Assembly: GCA_965261395.1 (NCBI GenBank)
Contig: OZ253462.1
Location: 800,001-864,000, forward strand
Source: Candidatus Latescibacterota bacterium
Lineage (GTDB): Bacteria > Latescibacterota > UBA2968 > UBA8231
Length of the DNA stretch: 64,000 bases
Direction: 5' to 3'
The notes beneath the pieces were generated by a model. That model ran no database searches. It saw only the letters and a program-made list of their open reading frames with translations, and was not told where the DNA came from. The position numbers and the translations under genes are program-made. Of this stretch, positions 1 to 14,669 are shown in pieces (positions within the stretch are counted from its first letter, which is position 1; every line of letters begins with the position of its first letter).

Positions 1-938
1 AGAAAGCCGGGCATGATCAGCAGTCCATCGCGGCGACGGTGGCGGTATCGCCCTCGACGATTTGTCGGGAGTTGCGGCGCAATCAAGGGCAACGCGGCTA
101 TCGTCCCGGCCAAGCCCATCACAAAGCGTTGGCGCGTCGTCGCCACAAGGCGAAGGCGACCAAGATGACGGCGGCGGTCATCGAGCGCATCGAAGCGGGC
201 CTGGGTCAGCAGTGGAGTCCAGAGCAGATTGCGGGTCGGCTGGCGACGACCGACGGGTTTCGATTGAGTCCGCAGCGTATCTACCAGCACATCCAGGCGG
301 ATCGCCAGGCGGGCGGGATGTTGTATCGCCATCTGCGCCACAGTCAGAAGAAACGCAAGAAACGTTATGGAAAAGCCGATGCCCGAGGGCAGATTAAAGG
401 CCGCATCAGCATGGACCAGCGACCGGCCATCGTGGAGGAAAAAAGTCGCATCGGCGATTGGGAAATCGACTTGGTGATGGGACGTGCACGCACCGGGGCG
501 CTCGTCTCGGTGGTGGAACGTCGCTCGCGCTATACCGTGCTGGGCAAAGTCCCCTCCAAACAGGCCGAGCACGTAGCGGCGGCCACCATTGCGTTGCTCG
601 CTGCCCATAAGGGGCATACCCAGACGATTACGGCCGATAACGGCAAGGAGTTTGCCCACCATGCCACGATCAGCCAAGCGTTGGACGCGGCTGTGTATTT
701 TGCCCATCCCTACCATGCCTGGGAGCGCGGACTCAACGAGAACACCAACGGGCTGATTCGCCAGTATGTGCCCAAAGGGACGGCCTTGGATACGCTGTCC
801 CAGGCGCAGGTACACCACATCATGGAGCGGCTCAATCATCGACCGCGAAAGGGCTTGGCATTTCAAACGCCGCATGAAATCTTATGCAAGGAAACAGAAG
901 TTCAACCCAAACATGGCGAAATTGCGCTTACGAGTTGA
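1..938 (+). CDS. IS30-family transposase, 5' end probably before the window
   Basis: ORF 39..938 with WSPEQIAGRL, GDWEID, TITADNGKEFA, YFAHPYHAWERGLNENTNGLIRQY and LNHRPRK motifs. Confidence 0.95.
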   Translation, partial: KAGHDQQSIAATVAVSPSTICRELRRNQGQRGYRPGQAHHKALARRRHKAKATKMTAAVIERIEAGLGQQWSPEQIAGRLATTDGFRLSPQRIYQHIQADRQAGGMLYRHLRHSQKKRKKRYGKADARGQIKGRISMDQRPAIVEEKSRIGDWEIDLVMGRARTGALVSVVERRSRYTVLGKVPSKQAEHVAAATIALLAAHKGHTQTITADNGKEFAHHATISQALDAAVYFAHPYHAWERGLNENTNGLIRQYVPKGTALDTLSQAQVHHIMERLNHRPRKGLAFQTPHEILCKETEVQPKHGEIALTS

Positions 939-944
939 ATCCGC
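1..944 (+). mobile_element. IS30-family insertion sequence, left end outside the window; right end near 921-944
   Basis: IS30 transposase ORF ending in ATTGCGCTTACGAGTTGAATCCGC, an IS30-type end that overlaps the stop codon; abuts a truncated gene. Confidence 0.85.
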
Positions 945-1506
945 GAATCGTATTAGAAAGATCTCTATCGACCTTTGTCGGGCCAGCATTGCCCCAGAGG
1001 GTGATTATAAGATCGTCGTTGGGGAACCGATCATTTGCCTTGTATGGGTTTTCCCCCGTCGTCACAGTCTCATCATTTTCGTGATTTGTCGGGATGGGGG
1101 TAAAAATGACATCCACCGATTCCTCTTTGGAATCCTTTGGAATCACGATACTGGATAGCACCACAGTGAAGCGACGACCTCGCGCCTCCACCGCATCACG
1201 TCCCCCAATATTGAATACCTGAAGATCACCAGACGGGTTTTGTACATAGATCAAACCCTCTGCACGCAAGAGCACCACCCGCTCCCCATCACCGAACGCC
1301 TCATGTTCTCCACCTACATAAGTCTTGGCTGTCACCTTGATCGTGACCGCACCGCCATCCTCGCGGAACTCTGTCTTGTCCACCGACAGCCGAATTCCAT
1401 CAGCCAACTGCGCCTGCGTTTCCCCGGCCCATCCCAGCACCAAACCAAACGCCAGCAACCAAGGCACATAAGCCAAGCGCCTGATTAACGACTTCGTGTG
1501 TATCAT
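945..1506 (-). pseudogene. N-terminal part of a secreted or surface protein, interrupted by IS30
   Basis: Signal peptide MIHTKS...WAGETQA followed by a beta-rich Ig/Calx-like segment; the frame runs into the IS end and stops inside it at 928. Confidence 0.7.
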
Positions 1507-1865
1507 TACTCAACCCTCCCAGGGAAAGCGTCCCTGATTAAAAGTGAGATAAGAAGATGAATCTGCTTTAAGATATTGCGTTCGTGCGTGTTTCATCGGT
1601 AGTGCATTCGTTTGAAATTAAGGTGCGCCACTCCGCTTTACGATGAGTCCTAAGAAACTGTTGAGTTATTAGATGCCTTTAGCGACGGTACCCCTTACTT
1701 AATAATGGCGATACAAATCATGTTCTCCGCGGAACCACCTGGTTCCGTTGGAGTTGACCTGACTTGTGGATTGCCTCGGTTAGAGGCACGGCTCCACCTG
1801 CCTCCGATAAATATACGTTCCAAGCGGTCAGGGAATGTCCGTTGGTCAAAAAAATTCAAATATTA

Positions 1866-1936
1866 ACGTGAGTTCGGGATAAGGTGAGGGACTCCTTTTT
1901 GGCTAAACTTAGGTATGCCCACCATACAGCCTAGCC
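1866..1936 (+). mobile_element. Orphan, diverged IS982 left end
   Basis: ACGTGAGTTCGGGATAAGgtGAGGGACTCCTTTTTGGCTAAACTT nearly matches 3494-3538; no transposase follows. Confidence 0.85.
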
Positions 1937-2008
1937 ATCAGCGAGATGTTGAACTGCGCGGGAGCCGCTGGTAAGCAGGCCCCCGCAGCTTGGCGTGAGT
2001 CATATTAT

Positions 2009-3187
2009 TCATTGGCAGACAGACAATCCCAGTTGATCGAGGTCATTGTTCAATATCGTGTCCAGACTGGGCGGGATACACCCACTTAACTGATTGCCGG
2101 ACAGAAGCAGGAGGTAAAGGTTGGTCAGTTGGCCTAACGCAGAGGGTATCGAGCCGGTTAAATTGTTGCCGTGCAGGTCCAGACCAATAACGCGTCCCCC
2201 GGCATTGGTGGTTACGCCCTCCCATGTGCCGATAGGTTCATCGCTTCCCCAATTGTGGCCCGTCCAATTACTACCTCCGCCCGTAGCTGCATAGAAGGCC
2301 ATCAGTGCAGGACGATCAGTTTGTTGGGGCTGCTCAGGTTGTTGGGACTGCTCAGGTTGTTGGGACTGCTCAGGTTGTTGGGAAATACCCACCGACCCGG
2401 ATTGAGGTTGAGGTGTAGAATCTCGAACATCACCTGAACAAATGGAATCATCCAAAATGGAATCATCCAAATAAGGCCGGTCGTCCTCGGGCAGGGCGGT
2501 AAGCGTATCGAGCGCCGCAGCACTAAAATTAACCGGCAGGTAGTAGGCGCTTGCATAATACGTGCTGCTTATTTCTACAAGATCGGCCGGTCGCGGCTCA
2601 TTGCGATTGTGCACACTAAGAAAATTGCGGTGGCGCACCGACCCTTCTGCTGCCACAGAGGCGATGGGATACTGCATATCGCCTTCTAACAGAGTATATC
2701 TGGCATTCGGCGTATCTCTATACAAGTAGTTTACATCCCCCCGATAAATACGCACCACCGAGGAATCATGGTCGATAGCCTCGCTCCAGATGCCACACGC
2801 TCCGTCACCCGGGCGGAAACCCGACCGGACTCTCCCAAGATGGGTCGAGGTTTCTGATGCCCAGTATTGCGTCTTACTATTGCTATCTAGATAATGCGAA
2901 AACAGGACGCTGTCGCCGTGGGCTTGGAACCGATAGTCTGATCCGTAGAATACAGTCCACACGGAATCTACTTCCGTATCGCAAGGCCAAGATATGGCAA
3001 GGCATTCGCCAGAGTCCGAACCCACCTGAGCCTTTCCGGCGGGCGGGCTAATGAGCGCTAGCGGATTTTCATAATCTGTACAAGAAAATCCCATGAATGC
3101 TACTAAAAGCAGTAAAATTTTTGTCTTGAAATCGCCTCGGTTTAGAGATTCAGGCAGGATACTTACGGTAAAGACAGTCTTTTTCAA
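2009..3187 (-). CDS. Predicted lipoprotein with a Gln/Pro linker and a C-terminal plant-type leucine-rich repeat domain
   Basis: Lipobox-like FMGFSC; LRRNT-like DRPALMAFYAATGG..W; LRR consensus LDLHGNNLTGSIPSALGQLTNL..LLLSGNQLSGCIP; start codon uncertain. Confidence 0.8.
   Translation of the reverse strand: MKKTVFTVSILPESLNRGDFKTKILLLLVAFMGFSCTDYENPLALISPPAGKAQVGSDSGECLAISWPCDTEVDSVWTVFYGSDYRFQAHGDSVLFSHYLDSNSKTQYWASETSTHLGRVRSGFRPGDGACGIWSEAIDHDSSVVRIYRGDVNYLYRDTPNARYTLLEGDMQYPIASVAAEGSVRHRNFLSVHNRNEPRPADLVEISSTYYASAYYLPVNFSAAALDTLTALPEDDRPYLDDSILDDSICSGDVRDSTPQPQSGSVGISQQPEQSQQPEQSQQPEQPQQTDRPALMAFYAATGGGSNWTGHNWGSDEPIGTWEGVTTNAGGRVIGLDLHGNNLTGSIPSALGQLTNLYLLLLSGNQLSGCIPPSLDTILNNDLDQLGLSVCQ
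2321..2382. repeat. 18-bp coding tandem repeat, about 3.4 copies, encoding QQPEQS/P
   Basis: GTTGGGACTGCTCAGGTT units read directly. Confidence 0.9.
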
Positions 3188-3418
3188 TTTACTTACCCTT
3201 TAGTTCTAGCTTCGTCGCAAAAAATCGCGAGTAGCCGTTTCATGGTTCGCTCCCGTAGACGGTTGGGAAAAAGGATGTACTGGACTGGAGACCTACTCGA
3301 TAACGTATGTTGATTGAGTGTGTTGAAAAAAATATAACACATTGGGTAAATGTGCAATCTCGTTTTACGTTCGAGTGAATCAAGCATACTAGAGGATTTT
3401 GAACTGTTTTTATCAAGT

Positions 3419-3450
3419 ACCATATATGGTTCCAAGGAACTATATATGGT
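3419..3450. promoter_or_regulatory. Imperfect 15+2+15 palindrome, candidate operator upstream of the LRR gene
   Basis: ACCATATATGGTTCC-AA-GGAACTATATATGGT, arms match at 14/15. Confidence 0.4.
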
Positions 3451-3493
3451 CCCCTTGCATATTACCATTTTGCCAATTTATATTTGTTAATCA

Positions 3494-4474
3494 ACGTGAG
3501 TTCGGGATAAGCAGAGGGACTCCTTTTTGGCTAAACTTTGGTTTGCCGACCAATGCTCATTCAGCCATCGAGGAGCCCCGCGATGAATTTAGTCGAATTG
3601 TTCTGCCACGTCGATGATTTTTGCCAAGCGTTTGAAGGATCATGGATCCGCCACCAATTAACGACCGGGCACCGGCGTCGGCGTCGTGCTGGTCAACTAT
3701 GTTTGAGCGAGATCATGACGCTATTGATTTGGTTTCATCCGTCCCACTACCGGGATTTCAAAGCCTTCTACCAACACCATGTCTGTAAACACCTACGCGA
3801 CGCATTTCCCGGGTTGGTCCGCTATGGACGCTTTGTCGAGCTGATGCCTTCGACGCTGATTCCGTTATGTAGCTACCTCCGCCAATGCCAAGGAGCCTGC
3901 ACGGGGATCTCGTTTATCGACTCGACGCCGTTGGCCGTATGTAATCCCCATCGGATTCATCAGCATCGGCTTTTCGCTGGCCTGGCGCAGCGGGGCAAAA
4001 GCTCGACGGGTTGGTTTTTCGGGTTCAAACTGCACGTGGTCTTCAATGACCGGGGACAACTGCTCAATCTGGCGCTGACGCCGGGCAATGTCGATGACCG
4101 AAAACCCGTACCCGCTTTGGTTCAAGAGCTGTTTGGCAAGTTATTTGCCGATCGAGGCTACCTATCCAAAGCGCTCTGCCAAAAATTGAGCGCACTCTTT
4201 GATCTCCAGTTGATCACCAAGCTGCGATCCAACATGAAAAATCAACTCCTGCCGATGGCCGATAAACTCCTACTACGCAAACGGGCAATTATCGAAACCA
4301 TCATCGATCAACTCAAAAATATCTCTCAGATCGAACACACAAGACATCGAAGCCCGGTCAACTTTATGGTCAATCTCCTAGGTGGATTGATTGCCTATTG
4401 TCATCAGCCTAAAAAACCGGCCCTAAGAATACAAAAGCTACCCGTATTGAAGACCCCTTAAACCGAACTCACGT
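3494..4474 (+). mobile_element. Complete IS982-family element, about 981 bp
   Basis: Terminal inverted repeats ACGTGAGTTCGG (3494) and CCGAACTCACGT (ending 4474) enclose a transposase. Confidence 0.93.
3583..4461 (+). CDS. IS982-family transposase
   Basis: [37 protein letters not shown] and RKRAIIETI motifs; ATG 3583 after a GAGGAG ribosome-binding site. Confidence 0.95.
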
Positions 4475-4530
4475 AACATTAGCTTTTTTTACCTTTTCCG
4501 TAGAGTATTCTGAATAACCCAACGGATTCT

Positions 4531-4590
4531 AAGAGACAGACAAAGAGACAGACAAAGAGACAGACAAAGAGACAGACAAAGAGACAGACA
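4531..4590. repeat. Perfect 12-bp intergenic tandem repeat (AAGAGACAGACA) x5
   Basis: Read directly from the sequence. Confidence 0.95.
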
Positions 4591-4669
4591 CAAAATCTCA
4601 CGATTTTTAAAAATAGGGATATATGAGTGATGTGTATACGACGCTTGAGGCTTCTTCGATTCGGCGTCC

Positions 4670-4700
4670 TTGACGGCCATAGAAGATGGCTTACTATACT
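4670..4700 (+). promoter_or_regulatory. Candidate sigma70-type promoter
   Basis: TTGACG at 4670-4675, then TACTAT at 4692 or TATACT at 4695. Confidence 0.35.
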
Positions 4701-4760
4701 ACATGGCTCCCTAGTCCCTTTCCCTAACCCCTTTCCTAAAGGTGTTGGTAGGGGGTCGCT

Positions 4761-4800
4761 GGCCTCGTCGATACTTCGCGGCATCGTCGAGGCCTTTTTT
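4761..4800 (+). terminator. Intrinsic terminator
   Basis: GGCCTCG..CGAGGCC stem followed by a T-tract. Confidence 0.65.
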
Positions 4801-4997
4801 GTGCGCCGGCGGGTCCGGCTATCACTTCGAATATCGTTCTCAGCAGTACAAATGGGCCGCTCCCTCGTCCTGTTCCTTTAGGGCCGCGTGGGACGGCTCG
4901 GCGTGCGATGATGGGTGTGGATCCGCGTTAATCTAGAAGATCGAAGAGTGTGCAGTCCCTTGTTATCCCTCGTCCGCGTCCTCTCGGTGCAGTAAGG

Positions 4998-5420
4998 TCA
5001 GTCGTGAGTTATGATCCTCCACTTCTTCCCCTGCATTGGGATCACATATCCAGATCCTTCAGGCGCTTCCCTGTGCTCCCGAGCCTCGCGCGTAATCTCC
5101 GGCCACCAATGCAGGAAGTGCATAACTTGGGTCCAAATCTTCTTTTCTGGATATTGGCTAGCGAAAAAAAAGGCCGTCAAGCCCGACTCACGCCAAGCAG
5201 CCTTTTCGGCCCGATTTCGAGAAATCCGCATATCACCCGAGATCACGATCCACTCCCCCTCACGGCTTAATGCTTCAAGCCAAGTGACATCCTCTGTCTG
5301 CGGCGCAAAGCGGTCTTTAAGGTGTACTATCGTCCAGTTGTCTCGTTCTGCCTAGTGATCTAGGACGAGCAACGCCGCAGCTAGACGGTGAGAGATGTTG
5401 TTGTCGAGGAAAAACCTCAC
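4998..5420 (-). pseudogene. VapC45-like PIN-domain toxin with an in-frame amber stop at codon 23
   Basis: GTG 5420 overlaps the antitoxin stop; reads VRFFLDNNIS...LDH*AER...TEDVTWLEAL...VISGDMRISRN; the TAG is at 5352-5354. Confidence 0.85.
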
Positions 5421-6094
5421 GCCGCTAATTGTGCCTCGTATGCGATAGCATCGCACACTTCCCTAGTAGTGGCATCGTACCACCAAGCGACCCGGTCCAT
5501 GTCTTGCTCAGCTCGATAGGTGCGGCTCAGTAGACGGGTGCGGACACCGCTGGGATTGCATATCGGTGCTCCGAAACTACGAGTAGGTTCGATGATGACT
5601 GTGCTCTCCCGGCCCATAGGATGCCAACGCACCGGGGCACCTGTTTCCGAAAAATCTAGCTCGTTGTCGGGCAGAACAGTCCTGACGAAGTCCTTAAAGT
5701 ACTGCTCGTCGGTGACGATGTCATGCAGTGCTGCTTCTTCCACTTGTTGGAGGATACGGCGGCCATCTGTACGAAAGCTGCGCTGCGAAAATGGATGCGA
5801 ATGGCCCGTGATCTGAGCTGCTTTGTGCGAGGCAATGCGCAAGGTCGGCCACGGTACCCCCTTCTCGCGAAAACTCCGCAAGGCTCGGACTTCGATAAGA
5901 TCGACAAAGCGCAAGATAGGGCTTTCCCCCGCCTCCGTTGAATCGAACACGGGCGGCAACTTGTGGCGAAATCCATTCCGGGTGTAGCTATAACCTCGCG
6001 TCCAACGCCGAATGGTGCTGGCGGGAACACCCGTCAGCCGGGCCGCTTCCGCCACGCTATAGACGCCATGTCCGATATATAGGTAATCTGCCAT
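5417..6094 (-). CDS. VapB45-like antitoxin (MerR-type HTH plus DUF433)
   Basis: YSVAEAARLTGVPASTIRRW HTH; IEPTRSFGAP..GVRT..L and EVCDAIAYE DUF433 motifs; translationally coupled to the PIN gene. Confidence 0.85.
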   Translation of the reverse strand: MADYLYIGHGVYSVAEAARLTGVPASTIRRWTRGYSYTRNGFRHKLPPVFDSTEAGESPILRFVDLIEVRALRSFREKGVPWPTLRIASHKAAQITGHSHPFSQRSFRTDGRRILQQVEEAALHDIVTDEQYFKDFVRTVLPDNELDFSETGAPVRWHPMGRESTVIIEPTRSFGAPICNPSGVRTRLLSRTYRAEQDMDRVAWWYDATTREVCDAIAYEAQLAA

Positions 6095-6221
6095 TTTGTG
6101 TTCCTTTATAGAGCGAGCTCTGTCGCCTCGAATCTACTTAACCGATTTTTGCAGGTCTGTTACCTTAAGATAAGTAGAGCTACCACGTCAATGCCACGCT
6201 GGCTTACACCTGCCTATCTCT

Positions 6222-7982
6222 TTACTCCTCGTCCGCGCCCACTCGGCGCATATATCTCGTGTACGCCCCTCGCAACGCTGCCCCCAGCACCAGCGCTAAT
6301 AATCCCCCGACCAGCGCCACGGTCCAGCGCCCCACGTAAAACCCCGAAAAGCCGATAACGCCCCCTCCCACGGCCACCGCACCGAGCAAGGCAAGACCCA
6401 AGCCGTGCGCGATAGGTGCGCCGCCACCGGTCTCAACACCCGCCTTGTGTGCGATCGGCCCCCACCATCCCATTGGCCGAGCCTCTTTGTAGAAGGCCAA
6501 GAGCTTTCCCTCTGGCTCTGGCTTGGTGCAAAGTGCCACCACAATCCAGAGCAAGCACGTCGCGGCAATCGACGAGAGTACCACCACATACGCCGCATCC
6601 TGCCCCGCGTCGATTAAATGGACGAAAACCACGTACTTATTCAATAGAAAGACTATCGGTCCGCCGAAAGAGGCGGCCAGTCGCGCCTTGCCGTTAAAGC
6701 GCCACCACCACCACTGGCCCCAATTAGCCGTCAGTTCGGCCGAGGAAAGACCGAGCATGAAGACCGCGATATCGATGACGTTCTCGGCCTGTAGCGCGAC
6801 CGCCAGCGAGAGGCCCATGATCGCCAGCATCACCACCCGACCGACACTCATGTAGTGCGCCATCTCAGCGCCGTGCTTGATAAAGCGCCGATACACGTCG
6901 TTGATAAAGACTTGAGCCCCGAAGTTCATGTTGGAGTCCACCGTGGACATGATCGAGGCGAACATCGCCACCAGCGCCAGCCCCAGAAGACCCGAGGGCA
7001 GGTAGTGGCCCAACAAGAGACCGTAGGCCAGCTCCTTGTCCATGCTGCCGTCGTACAGGCCCGGCCACTTGACCATCGCCCCCAGAGCGGGCAGAGTCAG
7101 CACCGCCAGCATTAGGAAGAGCGTGATCTCGGTCCAGATGTACATCCGCGTCGCCTCGCGGCTGTTGCGACACGACAGCAGCCGTTGGCCCTCCATCGCC
7201 CCAGCCATCGGGGCCACGTCGCCGCCATAGCCGATCGCGGTCCCCATCGTCCAAGCGATGATCCCCACCACCCCCAAAAGTTCGTGGCTCATCGGCGGAT
7301 GCCAGCTAACGACCCCTTCCCCAAACTGAGTTACCAGTGCCTGATAAAGCCCTGTCGGCCCGCCGAAGTCGGCCCAAACCAAGCCCATCAGCACCAGCGA
7401 GGACGCGATCATGATCGCGGTCTGGATCAAATCCGACATCACCACGCCCATATAGCCGGAGAGCACCACATAGACCAAGATGATCGGAATGACCAGCAAA
7501 AAGGTCTCAACGCGCGACCAGCCCAAGAGCGCCTCGGACACTTTCGTCAGCCCCAAAAGCCCTGCTCCGGTCCAAGCTACCACTGCGATAAAGGCACTGC
7601 GCAGCGAGACCCAAGCGCGCAGCTTCGGCGCAGCCGCACCGCCAAAGCGGAGCTCGTAAAATTCCGGCGAGGTAAAAATTTTCAACCGCCGCCAGCACGC
7701 GGCGAAGAGCAACCTACCGATCATCAGCGCCAGCCCGAAGCGGCTCAAATACCACCAGCAGATAAAGGTCTCGGTGATAACCGTCATGCCGCAGTACGCC
7801 GGTGCTACGTCGGCATTCATGCAGGTGACCGCATAGCTAGTGCCGCTCATCCACCCCTTCATCTTGCGCCCACCCAGGAAGTAATTTTCCATGCTCTCCT
7901 GGGCGAATCTCCTATAGTACAGTCCCATCCCCACCAAGAAGAGCATATAGAGCGCCATCAGCGCGTAATCTAGACCCGACAC
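6222..7982 (-). CDS. Sodium:solute symporter (SSS) family protein
   Basis: Many TM helices; YFLGGR, FYELRFG and ASIMSTVDS motifs. Confidence 0.92.
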   Translation of the reverse strand: MSGLDYALMALYMLFLVGMGLYYRRFAQESMENYFLGGRKMKGWMSGTSYAVTCMNADVAPAYCGMTVITETFICWWYLSRFGLALMIGRLLFAACWRRLKIFTSPEFYELRFGGAAAPKLRAWVSLRSAFIAVVAWTGAGLLGLTKVSEALLGWSRVETFLLVIPIILVYVVLSGYMGVVMSDLIQTAIMIASSLVLMGLVWADFGGPTGLYQALVTQFGEGVVSWHPPMSHELLGVVGIIAWTMGTAIGYGGDVAPMAGAMEGQRLLSCRNSREATRMYIWTEITLFLMLAVLTLPALGAMVKWPGLYDGSMDKELAYGLLLGHYLPSGLLGLALVAMFASIMSTVDSNMNFGAQVFINDVYRRFIKHGAEMAHYMSVGRVVMLAIMGLSLAVALQAENVIDIAVFMLGLSSAELTANWGQWWWWRFNGKARLAASFGGPIVFLLNKYVVFVHLIDAGQDAAYVVVLSSIAATCLLWIVVALCTKPEPEGKLLAFYKEARPMGWWGPIAHKAGVETGGGAPIAHGLGLALLGAVAVGGGVIGFSGFYVGRWTVALVGGLLALVLGAALRGAYTRYMRRVGADEE

Positions 7983-11245: not shown

Positions 11246-12024
11246 AACCCAATAAAGTCAAACGCACCCTCAAAGAGGGCGGCACGGTCATCGGCACCAT
11301 GACCTTTGAATTTTGCACTCCGGGCATTGCCCGTCTCTCTGCCGAGGCTGGCGCTGAATTCATTATGTACGACATGGAGCACACCGGCTGGAGCGTCGAG
11401 ACAGTGCGCGACCTGATCGCCACCACCAATGCCGATCACATTGAGCCTTTGGTGCGGGTGCCGGCGACCCAATACCACTTCATCGCCCGCGTCCTCGACG
11501 TCGGGGCCCGGGGCGTCATGGTGCCGATGATTAGCGACGCGCAGCAGACCGAGGTCATCGTGCAGTCGGGCAAGTACCCGCCCATTGGCCAGCGCGGCGC
11601 AGCCTTCCAAATCGCCCACGACCACTTCGCCGAAGGCTCCATCATCGGCAAGATCGACCACGCCAATACCGAGGGCCTGCTGATCGCTCAGATCGAAAAC
11701 CGCCCCGGGCTCGAAAACGTCGATCGCATCGCCGCGGTGGAGGGGATTGATGTGCTGTGGATTGGGGGTTTTGACTTGAGCAACTTCTTGGGGATTCCCG
11801 GGCAGTTTGACCACCCCGAATTCACCGCCGCCCTCGACCGCGTTGTCGATTCCTGCGAGCGCCACGGCAAGGCTGCTGGCTACTTGGTCAATACTATCGA
11901 GGAAGGAACGGAGATGCTGCGCCGAGGCTTTCGCTGCATAGCGTATGGCGGTGATTTATGGCTCTATCGCCGCGCCTTGGCCGAAGGCATCGAAGGGCTG
12001 CGGACGAGCGTCTGGCGGCGGTGA
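11242..12024 (+). CDS. HpcH/HpaI aldolase family protein
   Basis: DMEH, VRVP, LDVGARGVMVP, QIE and DLS..LG motifs; ATGA overlap with the upstream gene. Confidence 0.92.
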   Translation: MKPNKVKRTLKEGGTVIGTMTFEFCTPGIARLSAEAGAEFIMYDMEHTGWSVETVRDLIATTNADHIEPLVRVPATQYHFIARVLDVGARGVMVPMISDAQQTEVIVQSGKYPPIGQRGAAFQIAHDHFAEGSIIGKIDHANTEGLLIAQIENRPGLENVDRIAAVEGIDVLWIGGFDLSNFLGIPGQFDHPEFTAALDRVVDSCERHGKAAGYLVNTIEEGTEMLRRGFRCIAYGGDLWLYRRALAEGIEGLRTSVWRR

Positions 12025-12083
12025 TCGCAGAGACGCTATCCGTTTGGGTTAAGGCCACTCAACACAAATCAGGAGGTGAGAGT

Positions 12084-12320
12084 ATGGACAATCGAATTAC
12101 TATTGATCCTCAAGTGTATCACGGCCAAGCCTGCATTAAGGGGACTCGCCTTCCCGTGCATCAAATCCTCCGGATGCTCGCCAACGGGGATACCATCGAA
12201 GACCTACTTCAAGAATATCCTTCTCTAACATGGGAAGATATCCTCGCTTGCTTCGACTATGCAGCCTCACTGGCTGAAGAGCAAATGGCCCCTCTTGAAG
12301 TTCTCTCGGGCGAGGTATGA
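12084..12320 (+). CDS. DUF433 antitoxin
   Basis: RITIDPQVYHGQACIKGTRLPV...LLQEYPSLTWEDILAC; GGAGG ribosome-binding site. Confidence 0.92.
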   Translation: MDNRITIDPQVYHGQACIKGTRLPVHQILRMLANGDTIEDLLQEYPSLTWEDILACFDYAASLAEEQMAPLEVLSGEV

Positions 12321-12427
12321 AGATCTTGGTCGATGAGCACATCCCCCTCATGACGGTCCAAGCCTTGCCTATGATGGGGCATGACGTCCGCGAAAAAGAC
12401 GCAGAGAAAAGACGCAGGAACGACTAG
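12317..12427 (+). pseudogene. Truncated DUF5615 (PIN-like) toxin
   Basis: MKILVDEHIP..TVQAL...GHDV start, then unrelated sequence and a stop after 36 codons; ATGA overlap with DUF433. Confidence 0.8.
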
Positions 12428-12436
12428 GGATCAGAC

Positions 12437-12589
12437 CTATACGCATAGCCGAGCTCGCCGCGATGTGGTCTTTGCTCTGTTGGTTGGGTGTTTTTCCAAC
12501 CGCTGTTCCACTCGGTCAATCACCTCGTGAATAACCGTGTGAGCCAGTTGGTTTGTGTCGCGTGATCTTTTGGGCTTATTCTTGGACAT
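12437..12589 (-). CDS. Small basic 50-aa protein resembling ORFs that accompany IS1-related transposases
   Basis: Own translation MSKNKPKRSRDTNQLAHTVIHEVID...; family link is from recall of the KRPRDxNQLA motif and has not been checked. Confidence 0.45.
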   Translation of the reverse strand: MSKNKPKRSRDTNQLAHTVIHEVIDRVEQRLEKHPTNRAKTTSRRARLCV

Positions 12590-12648
12590 GCTATAAATAT
12601 GGGTAGTGTCCCAACACCAAGTAAGCAGATTTCACAGGGAAGACTTAA

Positions 12649-12912
12649 ATGTATCTAAGCGACCTATTGGATGCTCTCGATAATGGTAAGCCTATTGAAC
12701 TGTCAAGACGTGAACTCATCGAGATTTTTCAAAAGCAGAAGCCCTTAAATGACAGCCAACGTCTCGCCTTGTTCCATAGATTGGAACTCCGCGACCGAGA
12801 CCGAGAGTGGCCCTTTGAGAAAGAACGCCTGACACAAAAAGAGGTAGCAGAGAAAACAGGTGTATCTCTTGAACTTGTGAAACAGTATGACGCTGGAAAT
12901 CTGTCCGTCTAA
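12649..12912 (+). CDS. Small protein with a C-terminal helix-turn-helix
   Basis: LTQKEVAEKTGVSLELVKQY. Confidence 0.65.
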   Translation: MYLSDLLDALDNGKPIELSRRELIEIFQKQKPLNDSQRLALFHRLELRDRDREWPFEKERLTQKEVAEKTGVSLELVKQYDAGNLSV

Positions 12913-13010
12913 AAGGTTGGCAACCCGTTTAATGGCATCAAGTATATAATTCCCATTTCAAAATAGGCGACTACCAGGAAATCTTAAAGCCCATAGAGAG
13001 GAAGAACCAC

Positions 13011-13229
13011 ATGAACAGAAAAGATTTTGATGCTTGTGCCTGTGAATTGTCTGATAGGGTTGGGGAGATTCGAATGGAGGTAAGTAAACTTGCCAAGAAG
13101 GCGCGTAATACCTCCTTAGAGGGAGCAGTGGGTTTAGATCCGGCTGCCGCCCTAGACGAACTGGATGAATTACTAGAGGAGGTCGCTAACTCCTTGTACG
13201 TGACCTTCAAAACCGAAGACGAAATGTAA
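13011..13229 (+). CDS. Small acidic helical hypothetical protein
   Basis: 72-aa ORF with a GAGAGGAA ribosome-binding site. Confidence 0.55.
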   Translation: MNRKDFDACACELSDRVGEIRMEVSKLAKKARNTSLEGAVGLDPAAALDELDELLEEVANSLYVTFKTEDEM

Positions 13230-13251
13230 AACCCATAACTTATCATTCCGG

Positions 13252-13301
13252 ATTTCAAAATAGACCACTACCTCAAAATAGGTAGTGGTCTATTTTGAAA
13301 T
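13252..13301. repeat. Perfect 21-bp inverted repeat with an 8-bp spacer
   Basis: ATTTCAAAATAGACCACTACC-TCAAAATA-GGTAGTGGTCTATTTTGAAAT. Confidence 0.95.
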
Positions 13302-13525
13302 TGGGCATAGTCGCTGGCCACGTCTTTATTGAGCCGCGCCGGGGCCGGTGGCCTCCCCTGAGCCTTGCTCGGCTGCTGGCTGCCGGTCGCCGCGATCGCG
13401 GCCGCTGAAAGTCAAAGAGAGACACTACCAAAAAAGGAGACCGCAACGCAATTAGCCGATCCTCGAACGAATTTCAAAAAGGATTAGACCTGTGGCTATA
13501 CTTCAGGCACACAAGGAGAGTTCAA

Positions 13526-13900
13526 ATGAACTACGAAGATATTATCCAAGACTTGAGCGAGTATGTCGAGCGATTTGATTGCAAGAAGCAATACAAGCGG
13601 AGGAAAACAATACTTCAAATATATCGACTATTAGACAATAGACCTTCGGGCGGCGATTTCCGAAGGCAGTGGGGTTGGGAAGTAGTAGGGGAAATTCGCC
13701 AAGCTGGTAAAGGTCCGGCAACGATTGTGAACGTAACCCCTGACGCACCGCACTACATAAAGTCGCTGGAAGGCGATACCCAAGAAAACTTCCCCATACT
13801 CCAGAACAAAATCCGTTGTAAAGCGTTTCGGCACGAAGCCAAAAAAGTGTTCAGAAACTATTTGTCAGCCGAGATAAAACAGCTTGAAGATGACGGCTAA
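13526..13900 (+). CDS. Hypothetical protein
   Basis: 124-aa ORF with an AAGGAG ribosome-binding site. Confidence 0.65.
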   Translation: MNYEDIIQDLSEYVERFDCKKQYKRRKTILQIYRLLDNRPSGGDFRRQWGWEVVGEIRQAGKGPATIVNVTPDAPHYIKSLEGDTQENFPILQNKIRCKAFRHEAKKVFRNYLSAEIKQLEDDG

Positions 13901-13968
13901 TCAGGCAGGCAGATTTCAAATAGACCACCCATAACTTGACGCGTCATCTCACAACCGGAGGCAATGCT

Positions 13969-14517
13969 ATGAAGATCGCCAGTTACGTCCTGTTGGGCCT
14001 TTTATCTTGCGTCGAGGTCTTGGCCGGAGAGACCGCCTTTGATAGAGCCGTTGAAGCCTATCGGACCTACAAGAAAGCCCAGCACGCCTATTTTGAAGCC
14101 ATCGACGCCCACGAAGAAACTAGGCTGGCTTGGGATGCTTATTGGGCCACAGACCGAGCCGATGACGAAGCCCATAAGAAAGCCGAGGCCGCTTGGGAGG
14201 AAGCCAGAGACACAAATAAAGAAGTCAAAGGCGCCTATGCGATTTTTAGTATAACCGGAAAAGCTGCTTTTGAAGCCGTAGACGCGATTGAAGAAGTCAA
14301 GCTAGCCCTTGCCGCTTTTGATGAAGCCGAACGCGCCGTTGAAGACGCTCAAGATGCTTGGTTTAACGCCAAAGGCCCCCGTGAAGCCTATTATTTGACC
14401 GCCCTCAATGAAGCCCATGCCGCCCTTGATGAAGCCAGCGACACCTACCTTGCAGTCAGGGAAGTCTTTGATGAAGCCATCAAAAAAGCCTACGAGAGGG
14501 GCGAAAAAAACCATTGA
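13969..14517 (+). CDS. Secreted Ala/Glu-rich alpha-helical hypothetical protein
   Basis: GGAGG ribosome-binding site; signal peptide MKIASYVLLGLLSCVEVLA; repeated AFDEA/AYFEA units. Confidence 0.7.
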   Translation: MKIASYVLLGLLSCVEVLAGETAFDRAVEAYRTYKKAQHAYFEAIDAHEETRLAWDAYWATDRADDEAHKKAEAAWEEARDTNKEVKGAYAIFSITGKAAFEAVDAIEEVKLALAAFDEAERAVEDAQDAWFNAKGPREAYYLTALNEAHAALDEASDTYLAVREVFDEAIKKAYERGEKNH

Positions 14518-14542
14518 TAAGGCTTGCTGACCCAGTTCCGAT

Positions 14543-14571
14543 CCCCCTTGGCAAGAACCGTGCCAAGGGGG
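14543..14571. terminator. GC-rich hairpin between convergent genes, probable terminator
   Basis: CCCCCTTGGCA-N7-TGCCAAGGGGG. Confidence 0.6.
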
Positions 14572-14669
14572 CTGATTTTCGCAGCTTATTTCAAACTGAC
14601 CCAGTTCCGAATGAAAAATAAAAAGGCCGCCGTGTAAGGGCGGGTCCCATCGTTAGTCCACTAGCTGGC

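Follow-up and report, generated by a model that had tools for sequence, protein, structure and literature searches.

A cassette-like array of small genes in a Latescibacterota genome is probably a pile-up of IS1-family remnants that kept their passengers

Is a row of small genes that looks like a set of integron cassettes a new gene-capture system or a known kind of mobile DNA? The question is raised by an array in a 64,000-nucleotide stretch of Candidatus Latescibacterota bacterium (contig OZ253462.1, positions 800,001 to 864,000; the window). An insertion at window positions 12022-14614, between two convergent aldolase-type genes, contains an island of low GC content (12395-14608; 48.5% against 62.2% in each flank and 59.3% in the 6.55-Mb genome). 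Four open reading frames (ORFs) lie there in one orientation, at 12649-12912, 13011-13229, 13526-13900 and 13969-14517 (ORF1 to ORF4). Their ATGs are preceded by purine-rich stretches, and a copy or relic of the 21-bp motif ATTTCAAAATAGACCACTACC is found 3' of all four, 9-70 nt behind the stop codons. The first-pass annotation of the window had described the co-oriented, lower-GC ORFs, their own ribosome-binding sites and the trailing motif, all of which are present, and had taken them for an undescribed integron-like system. Our results suggest instead that the array is probably a pile-up of IS1-family insertion sequence (IS) remnants, which have lost their transposase and kept their passenger genes, and thus belongs to a known kind of mobile DNA.

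The motif is exact at 13252(+) and 13281(-) and agrees at 19 of 21 positions at 12955(+). When <=3 mismatches were allowed, the window gave 3 matches and none was found in any of 100 shuffles. The genome was scored with the 14 fixed positions of TTTCAAA-N6-CACTACC, and the reversed pattern was used as a control.

0 mismatches: 17 hits, reversed control 0
up to 1 mismatch: 25 hits, reversed control 0
up to 2 mismatches: 55 hits, reversed control 21

The array positions 13409 and 14588 are 2-mismatch hits, of which about 0.007 per 2.2 kb are expected by chance. At 13913 the copy is a relic with gaps, three bases having been deleted. The orthologue that follows the same ORF3 stop codon in a related genome, G006 (genus genomes are cited as G, loci and contigs as L, each with a number), is an intact terminal repeat. 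The pattern was found in 23 of 31 genus genomes, and the reversed control gave 0 hits in all 31. Ends sit 3' of ORFs above chance, as had been anticipated: the stop codon of an ORF of >=60 aa lies within 75 nt upstream of 11 of 25 ends genome-wide, compared with 19% of random positions (binomial P = 0.004, obtained with a crude ORF caller).

The elements bounded by the motif identify it as a transposon end. Target duplications in the IS1 family measure about 8-9 bp. In this lineage an 8-bp target duplication was found in 11 genus elements and 2 metagenome elements (the pair in G006 matches at 7 of 8 positions), and of the 12 transposase loci scanned, 7 have the motif directly behind a PF03400 gene. 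The ends read GGTAGTG... throughout the lineage, which fits the GGnnnTG with which IS1-family ends begin (PMC6807381). The IS1-like character that had been claimed for the ends is thereby upheld. Four elements of the home genome are flanked by duplications.

element A: 2999609-3001797, target duplication GCTGTTTG
element B: 4579586-4580816, target duplication TGTCTCGG
17.2-kb element: 6399066-6416306, target duplication CAATTTCA
L006 element, 4.46 kb: 3615699-3620155, target duplication TACCATTC

The transposase of the L006 element is a 260-aa protein with a PF03400 score of 43 bits (cut-off 24.1). Among its >8000 homologues, those given a name by their sources are called 'IS1 family transposase'. 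The NCBIfam IS1 model was the best hit for this protein and for its G005 relative, yet stayed below its cut-off (88 and 66 against 100 bits). Relatives were found in 14 of the 31 genus genomes. An intact-transposase copy with exactly the 21-bp ends of the array is present in G005, in the order end, outward-reading 309-aa metallopeptidase-like passenger, 55-aa small basic protein (sbp), 60-aa ORF, 281-aa transposase (PF03400, 33 bits), end. The transposase of the lineage is a single open frame of 260-297 aa with no InsA/InsB' frameshift pair, so the lineage was placed in a single-ORF branch. From its sequences it would be a passenger-carrying, single-ORF branch of the IS1 family, which we take to be the one named after ISMhu11. 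Siguier et al. reportedly described ISMhu11-like elements in 2009 as 'transporter IS'. The PF03400 DDE enzyme, the GGnnnTG ends, the 8-bp duplications and the passengers inside the ends are the features that the lineage shares with this branch. It differs from classical IS1, for which an InsA/InsB' frameshift pair is described (PMC8944449), in having sbp and the 60-aa ORF upstream of the transposase, and the window differs further in having no transposase.

Both sbp (MSKxKxKRPRDxNxLAH...) and the 60-aa ORF are conserved upstream of the transposase and neither matches any family (L041 1615-1782 and 1984-2166; window 12500-12589 on the minus strand). Right ahead of the sbp start codon, 4 of the 5 leaders have 8 nt complementary to the end tip, which could pair with the tip in read-through transcripts.

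That such elements hold passenger genes, as had been proposed, was confirmed by homologues of ORF3 and ORF4 inside end-bounded elements. A and B retain a C-terminal transposase remnant at one end and carry ORF4 homologues, and B also has an ORF3 homologue. ORF4 is the commonest passenger of the lineage, with homologues in the end-bounded elements of A, B, G006 and G012, and others outside such elements in G008 (L046) and G022 (L047). Its family comprises 28 members, all unnamed, among 5.8 billion proteins. ORF3 has four intact copies (window, B, G006 and G008) with 47-83% amino-acid identity. ORF2 has 2 relatives among the same 5.8 billion proteins, both of 72 aa and with 88% and 75% identity, and no DNA match in the 30 other genus genomes; partial homologues of ORF1 were found in G044, G004 and G008. 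The dN/dS values are 0.46-0.59 for ORF3 and 0.30-0.61 for ORF4. ORF3 had no match in Pfam, NCBIfam, PADLOC or PDB sequences, and searches of PADLOC, NCBIfam and PDB sequences yielded no function for ORF2 to ORF4. The passengers are real genes that evolve fast and are restricted to the lineage.

Between the passenger stop codon and the end there are about 0 nt in G005, 7 nt in element A, 12 nt in G006 and 13 nt in element B. Because passengers read outward, their last stop codon comes within a few bases of the passenger-side end, and each unit of the window therefore corresponds to the distal half of one element. Upstream of the genes the borders are less regular: counted back from the start codon, the homology around ORF3 reaches 27 nt in G008, 38 nt in B and no less than 97 nt in both G006 and the window.

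A promoter-like TTGACT-17-TAATAT was seen upstream of the ORF4 homologues outside IS elements (G008, G022). In all IS-borne ORF4 copies the cut falls some 26-30 nt ahead of the start codon and leaves them without this match; the passenger must be read from IS-borne signals.

From left to right, the array and its older neighbour consist of the following parts.

12084..12320, plus strand: DUF433 antitoxin gene (PF04255, 84 bits); older island cargo, outside the IS array
12320..12427, plus strand: chimeric ORF, 25 N-terminal toxin codons joined to 11 C-terminal membrane-protein codons
12395..12499, plus strand: 3' end of a membrane-protein passenger with downstream DNA, derived from a mobile insertion cassette (MIC)
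12437..12589, minus strand: truncated IS accessory gene sbp, homology limited to codons 1-30 (12500-12589)
12590..12634: sbp leader, with GGTAGTG at 12602-12608 and ATTTCA at 12629-12634
12649..12912, plus strand: ORF1, 87 aa, weak helix-turn-helix passenger (sub-threshold Sigma70_r4 and helix-turn-helix-family matches)
12955..12975, plus strand: end copy 1, 19/21; its tip, 12975, is a precise interspecies breakpoint
13011..13229, plus strand: ORF2, 72 aa, lineage-restricted passenger with few relatives
13252..13272, plus strand: end copy 2, 21/21
13273..13280: 8-bp spacer TCAAAATA between two facing end tips, as long as a target duplication
13281..13301, minus strand: end copy 3, 21/21, reading GGTAGTGGTCTATTTTGAAAT on the plus strand and forming a hairpin with copy 2
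13366..13429, plus strand: module of a divergent end subfamily (GGCTGCTGGC...GCCGCTGAAAGTCAAAGAGAGACACTACC), with a CACTACC terminus in 5 of 7 copies
13526..13900, plus strand: ORF3, 124 aa, passenger with homologues in element B, G006 and G008
13913..13930, plus strand: decayed end copy (ATTTCAAA-TAGACCAC--CC), intact in its G006 counterpart
13969..14517, plus strand: ORF4, 182 aa, with a signal-peptide-like start and a helical repeat
14527..14541, plus strand: half copy, the outer 13 nt of a variant end (14527-14539) plus GA; an exact 15-nt direct repeat of 14596-14610
14540..14608, plus strand: transposase-side terminus stub with a hairpin at 14543-14571, a variant end at 14588-14608 and no transposase gene

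The left part is built of fragments. At 12394/12395 the chimeric ORF passes from a DUF5615/PIN-like toxin to a small membrane-protein passenger. The intact toxin partner is found in G020 (118 aa, PF18480 at 78 bits), a breakpoint at 12393 is common to G013, and the C-terminus KDAEKRRRND matches the membrane protein of a MIC in G022. The DNA of 12395-12499 is 93% identical to L043 1084-1188, which lies inside the G022 element bounded by ends and a duplication, and 91% identical to G008. The sbp fragment has 60% identity over 30 aa to the sbp upstream of the G005 transposase, and sbp also occurs in element A, G012, G021 and G006. Together with its leader (12500-12634) it is 88% identical to element A. 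In the passenger-less IS of G021 the sbp leader continues directly into an intact end (...AAGCAGATTTCAAAATAGACCACTACC), and the ATTTCA at 12629-12634 is the inner 6 nt of a truncated end. The GGTAGTG at 12602-12608 is an internal complement of the end tip within this leader.

Two reverse-oriented ends had been listed for the array. The one at 13281 is an exact copy, whereas 12602 matches over 7 nt only and was rejected as a left end, the homologous position being internal, in the accessory-gene leader, in A, G012 and G021.

On the right, the G006 counterpart of the decayed end at 13913 actually terminates a 5.8-kb element, which has a target duplication. The stub at 14540-14608 aligns with the 70 nt downstream of the L006 transposase stop codon, hairpin and end included. 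The end at 14588 had been read as the one that closes the ORF4 unit; it is in fact the stub's transposase-side end. Likewise, the supposed further motif copy at 13409 is the tip of the divergent terminal module of about 60 nt, where it counts as a 2-mismatch hit. This module occurs in 7 copies across 5 genomes, whose flanks diverge past CACTACC, and with 13281 its end at 13429 has the geometry of a 149-bp miniature inverted-repeat transposable element (MITE). The island stops 6 nt past 14608, where the empty site of G002 resumes at AAATAAAAAGG.

The GC-rich module of about 60 nt (GGCTGCTGGC..GCGATCGC..GCCGCTGAAAG...), which has an internal dyad, was seen in several genus genomes (window 13366-13429; L003 10025-10084; two in L007; L057, L058 and L059). 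One L007 copy and apparently one in L003 lie just upstream of a gene with a signal-peptide-like start. It may represent a MITE-subfamily end or else an independent repeat.

Taken together, the array is a mosaic of distal halves, each consisting of a passenger gene and an end, a truncated accessory gene, a head-to-head junction and a transposase-side stub. In the proposed course of events, the autonomous ancestor would have been built like the G005 copy, namely end, outward passenger or passengers, sbp, small ORF, single-ORF DDE transposase and end, in a lineage that readily yields transposase-less derivatives (MICs and MITEs). Each ORF with its motif would be a passenger gene together with the passenger-side inverted repeat that its 3' end adjoins. 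Several such elements would have landed inside or beside each other at a tolerated, AT-richer intergenic hotspot that already held the DUF433/DUF5615 toxin-antitoxin pair, and later events, starting from end tips or taking place between homologous parts, would have deleted the transposase-side halves and the target duplications.

The geometry of the array is in keeping with such a history. No outward-facing end was found at its left border, so the array as a whole is immobile. Transposon geometry remains only where 13281 is paired with 13429, 13930 or 14608; the sub-segments 13281-14608 and 13281-13429 (149 bp, ends facing outward) have no duplication. The right border of a unit is always an end tip and the left border varies. 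A precise tip border combined with a variable left border points to events that start at a transposon tip and not to site-specific cassette exchange. Such events are insertion next to other DNA or outward deletion from the tip.

Layering of this kind was observed in relatives. We examined 103 exact ends in 14 near-complete genomes for pairs within 5 kb and found 14 proper inverted pairs and 5 same-orientation pairs. The random mean for the latter is 0.34, and none of 5000 randomisations (0/5000) reached 5. In 4 of the 5 same-orientation pairs a gene or gene remnant lies between the ends. Three composites have one target duplication each: in G001, a 903-bp composite in which a 93-bp MITE is combined with a RelE/HTH pair and, on the outside, with an end of another subfamily, flanked by CAATTTTT; in G011, a 3.7-kb composite that encodes a secreted protein of 1056 aa and has two additional ends inside, flanked by GAATTATG; and in G022, a 1.03-kb composite with ends of two subfamilies and one more end inside, flanked by CCTCTTTG. 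In relatives, an outward-facing end and any downstream end thus move as one unit, internal ends notwithstanding. Same-orientation end pairs about 153-155 bp apart with no gene between them were also seen, at G000:C1:5681479/5681632 (L008) and G009:C1:2241555/2241710.

The head-to-head junction has parallels too. The facing pair at 13252-13301 is the sole one within 5 kb in the 14 near-complete genomes. In metagenome contigs, facing tips were found at 4 loci, with spacers of 8, 8, 7 and 8 bp, and the two long contigs each have one neighbour's target duplication as the spacer. L071 has a 498-bp deletion derivative, with GGCGAATT on both sides, directly next to the end of a copy in which the transposase C-terminus can be seen; in L072, a 6.7-kb element flanked by AAGCCCGT, whose transposase has 40% identity to that of L006, abuts a 1.5-kb element. 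Since these spacers are duplications, insertion into the 8 bp beside a resident tip does occur in this kind of IS. By analogy, the simplest reading of 13273-13280 would be an insertion beside a resident tip of which the second 8-mer copy was lost. Composites that move as units and insertions that abut tips explain the layering without a new recombinase.

The chromosomal site itself was compared in 24 genus genomes, with the empty state judged from coordinates. It is empty in 8 (G002, G005, G007, G009, G018, G019, G020 and G024), and in G002, which was read directly, the flanks meet (…GGCGGCGC TAA AATAAAAAGG…). Five genomes (G001, G010, G011, G012 and G021) have the DUF433 gene without the array, and only a fragment of it is found there. 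About 4 kb of other DNA occupy the site in G006, and two large GTPase-like genes occupy it in both G003 and G013. The array of G008 is a variant: the ORF3 module follows immediately on the last base of the ORF1 end (12975 to 13496), which makes the tip a breakpoint between species.

At strain level, contigs of four runs from four studies (X2, X6, X7 and X13) were searched. In X2, 12364-13998 is covered with zero differences, in X6, 12873-13886 with 3 differences, and in X7, two pieces span 12845-13874. The empty-site form was present as well in X6 and X7 (joints 12022->14664 and 12029->14668), with the flanks at higher depth. No unit-level gain or loss at the locus was found in the contigs of the four runs, which drop rare variants and cannot show rare circles. 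Units thus differ in content and order between species, at this and other loci, and not among the strains in these contigs. The joints 12636->13953 and 14518->13253 were rejected as locus variants; they reflect other copies, of A- or G012-type elements. About 0.05-0.06 of the words were present in RNA runs.

The identity of the ends, the transposase family, the homologous passengers in duplication-flanked elements, the empty site and the tip breakpoint are therefore established. The order of events at the array, and its mobilisation in trans by the sole resident IS1 transposase, at 3.62 Mb, are what we infer from them.

Several observations weigh against a pile-up of IS1 remnants. No transposase remnant was found inside 12.3-14.7 kb by tblastn, and the G005 copy with the identical ends has no target duplication. 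The array junctions have none either, the 8-mers after 12975, 13429, 13930, 14539 and 14608 occurring once regionally. This absence is expected after intramolecular transposition, which is described as removing flanking repeats (PMC7986276, PMC6807381), or after adjacent deletion. The data do not separate nested insertion, adjacent deletion and homologous recombination. A transposase with the ends of the array had been looked for elsewhere: the same 21-bp ends were found in G005, but the only transposase of this genome has ends of another N6 subfamily (CTGCGA versus ATAGAC), and for this reason mobilisation in trans can be called no more than putative. Cross-mobilisation is plausible because mixed-subfamily elements bear one duplication. 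The array is also unchanged in the contigs of three studies and gives no sign of current activity.

Two further details are not accounted for by the pile-up. One truncated end, GCAGATTTCA(C), stands before ORF1 in the window and before ORF4 in A and G012 (window 12629-12636; L002 2565-2580; L026 around 1700). It may be a preferred joint inside the end; the sbp leader, with 5 copies in the genus, offers too few cases for a test of this. An 8-bp duplication TTTCAAAA around ORF4 in A was considered and dropped, since G012 reads ATTTCA-C-AAAACTGGG, two separate pieces. The second detail is the spacer TCAAAATA, which is identical (8/8) to end positions 4-11, a match that the pile-up leaves unexplained. 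A general preference for end-like targets is unsupported, because 12184 of 20000 shuffles reach the mean similarity observed for the 11 target duplications.

Both details would find a place if the transposase took any outward-facing end together with any downstream end, across subfamilies, and favoured the 8 bp that abut a tip. We consider this unlikely, though worth stating. On this view end-directed insertion would have left the spacer and the shared truncated end as its footprints, gene-plus-end units would pile into arrays, and sub-arrays with a left end would form mobilisable cassette sets. This would be a transposase-only counterpart of the integron, acting in trans genome-wide.

That the array was built elsewhere, as a composite transporter IS with internal ends, and came here by one transposition before the left end and the transposase were lost, is improbable. 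The composites of relatives, whose internal same-orientation ends share one target duplication, make such an arrival conceivable; parts of the same array stand at the same chromosomal site in G008, and the right border is an end 6 nt from ancestral sequence. But neither border has an outward-facing end with a target duplication, the left part has been joined to a truncated toxin gene as well as to a piece of another MIC, and the head-to-head junction at 13272/13281 shows that at least two separate elements are involved.

An integron-like system, in which the motif is the site of a site-specific recombinase that moves single gene-plus-site cassettes, deserves very little credence. Its appeal comes from the copy behind each ORF, from module content and order that vary by species and from one truncated end ahead of two different passengers, and like an integron the array has co-oriented, small, mostly promoter-less ORFs with a repeated site after each. 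However, the genome has four PF00589 matches and none of them lies in the 64-kb window, and the family scan of the island ORFs gave no tyrosine recombinase match. The claim that no recombinase is nearby was therefore right, the sole PF03400 match of the genome, the transposase at 3.62 Mb, being remote as well. In the 11 genus elements the motif is tied to DDE transposases and 8-bp duplications, and the modules have no constant left border (-27, -38 and at least -97 relative to the start of ORF3). Unlike an integron, the array has no IntI, no attI, no attC-type imperfect palindrome and no fixed 5' border, and its sites are transposon ends. A single motif copy forms no hairpin; the sole hairpin, at 13252-13301 (23 bp, -23.1 kcal/mol, z = -11), consists of two abutted ends. 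The contigs of three studies, though they drop rare variants, have no cassette-level variants. The proposal of an undescribed integron-like gene-capture system does not survive the variable left borders, the precision of the end tip alone and the junctions without duplications.

It is scarcely credible that the motif is a regulatory or terminator element of small genes and not mobile DNA: it lies 9-70 nt behind stop codons, the 13252-13301 pair folds as a strong hairpin and ATTTCAAA also occurs upstream of ORF3 inside a promoter-like match, but single copies have no internal dyad, stem or T-run, Rfam gave two sub-threshold chance matches and nothing at thresholds, and the same sequence bounds duplication-flanked elements and trails transposase genes.

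With the array again regarded as layered IS1-family remnants, its closest known counterparts are IS derivatives. Transporter IS, MICs, MITEs, solo ends and intercalated copies are all described as such (PMC3129680, PMC6199540). The MIC231 elements of the Bacillus cereus group, which are related to IS231, have paired inverted repeats, one or more coding sequences, no transposase, a length of 0.7-3 kb and mobilisation in trans, and a MIC has the region beside one end in common with its parent IS (PMC6199540). The elements A and B and those of G012 and G001 fit the MIC description, and MITEs of the lineage measure 79 bp (G020) and 93 bp (G001). The parent of MIC231, IS231, in contrast belongs to the IS4 family, and the array of the window is a series of distal halves without target duplications. 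With no outward-facing left end, no duplication and no transposase of its own, the whole array is neither a MIC nor an autonomous IS.

IS26 arrays, as far as they are described in PMC7986276 and PMC6807381, resemble the window in their segments split by IS sequence, insertion beside a resident copy, lost flanking repeats and GGnnnTG. They differ in that IS26 arrays keep whole, directly repeated IS copies and use a conservative reaction without duplication. The window retains only 21-bp ends, and the abutting insertions of L071 and L072 produced 8-bp duplications.

Some further observations were made on the lineage and its surroundings. The 17.2-kb element (G000:C1:6399066-6416306, which is L003 1001-18241) carries a chondroitinase-B-like lyase, a DUF6883 protein, a TIR-domain protein, an 8xMP membrane protein, a 1276-aa protein that is SNF2-type-helicase-like by eye and a large secreted metallopeptidase-like protein; by the look of it, this cargo is related to defence or to the surface. 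The interior of the element also contains ORFs that by eye are IS630-like and IS5-like transposases. A further solo end of the family, exact at the 14 fixed positions, is located at window 1598-1618 (GGTAGTGCATTCGTTTGAAAT), flanked by a 192-aa secreted-looking ORF and a 392-aa leucine-rich-repeat protein and beside an IS30-like (rve) transposase at 39-938. The search for partner ends of solo ends within 25 kb gave weak candidates only. The GTPase-like pair at the array's chromosomal site (L023 of G013, 2654-6757; L024 of G003, 381-4235) encodes proteins of 573-792 aa with a P-loop that are dynamin-like by eye, and G013 has at the same hotspot a 350-aa transposase of IS481/IS3-like appearance.

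For the annotation of this genome, a cluster of 'orphan' genes and a truncated toxin gene are accounted for. For the genus, an IS1 lineage is documented in 23 of 31 genomes, in intact-transposase, passenger-carrying, MIC and MITE forms, with a cargo of secreted proteins (ORF4, metallopeptidase-like, lyase), toxin-antitoxin pairs and defence-like genes. Its relatives provide natural examples of multi-end composites that move as units and show that new copies can insert in the 8 bp abutting a resident tip. In conclusion, the locus shows how IS elements can layer into look-alikes of cassette systems, and it represents no new class of gene-capture system.

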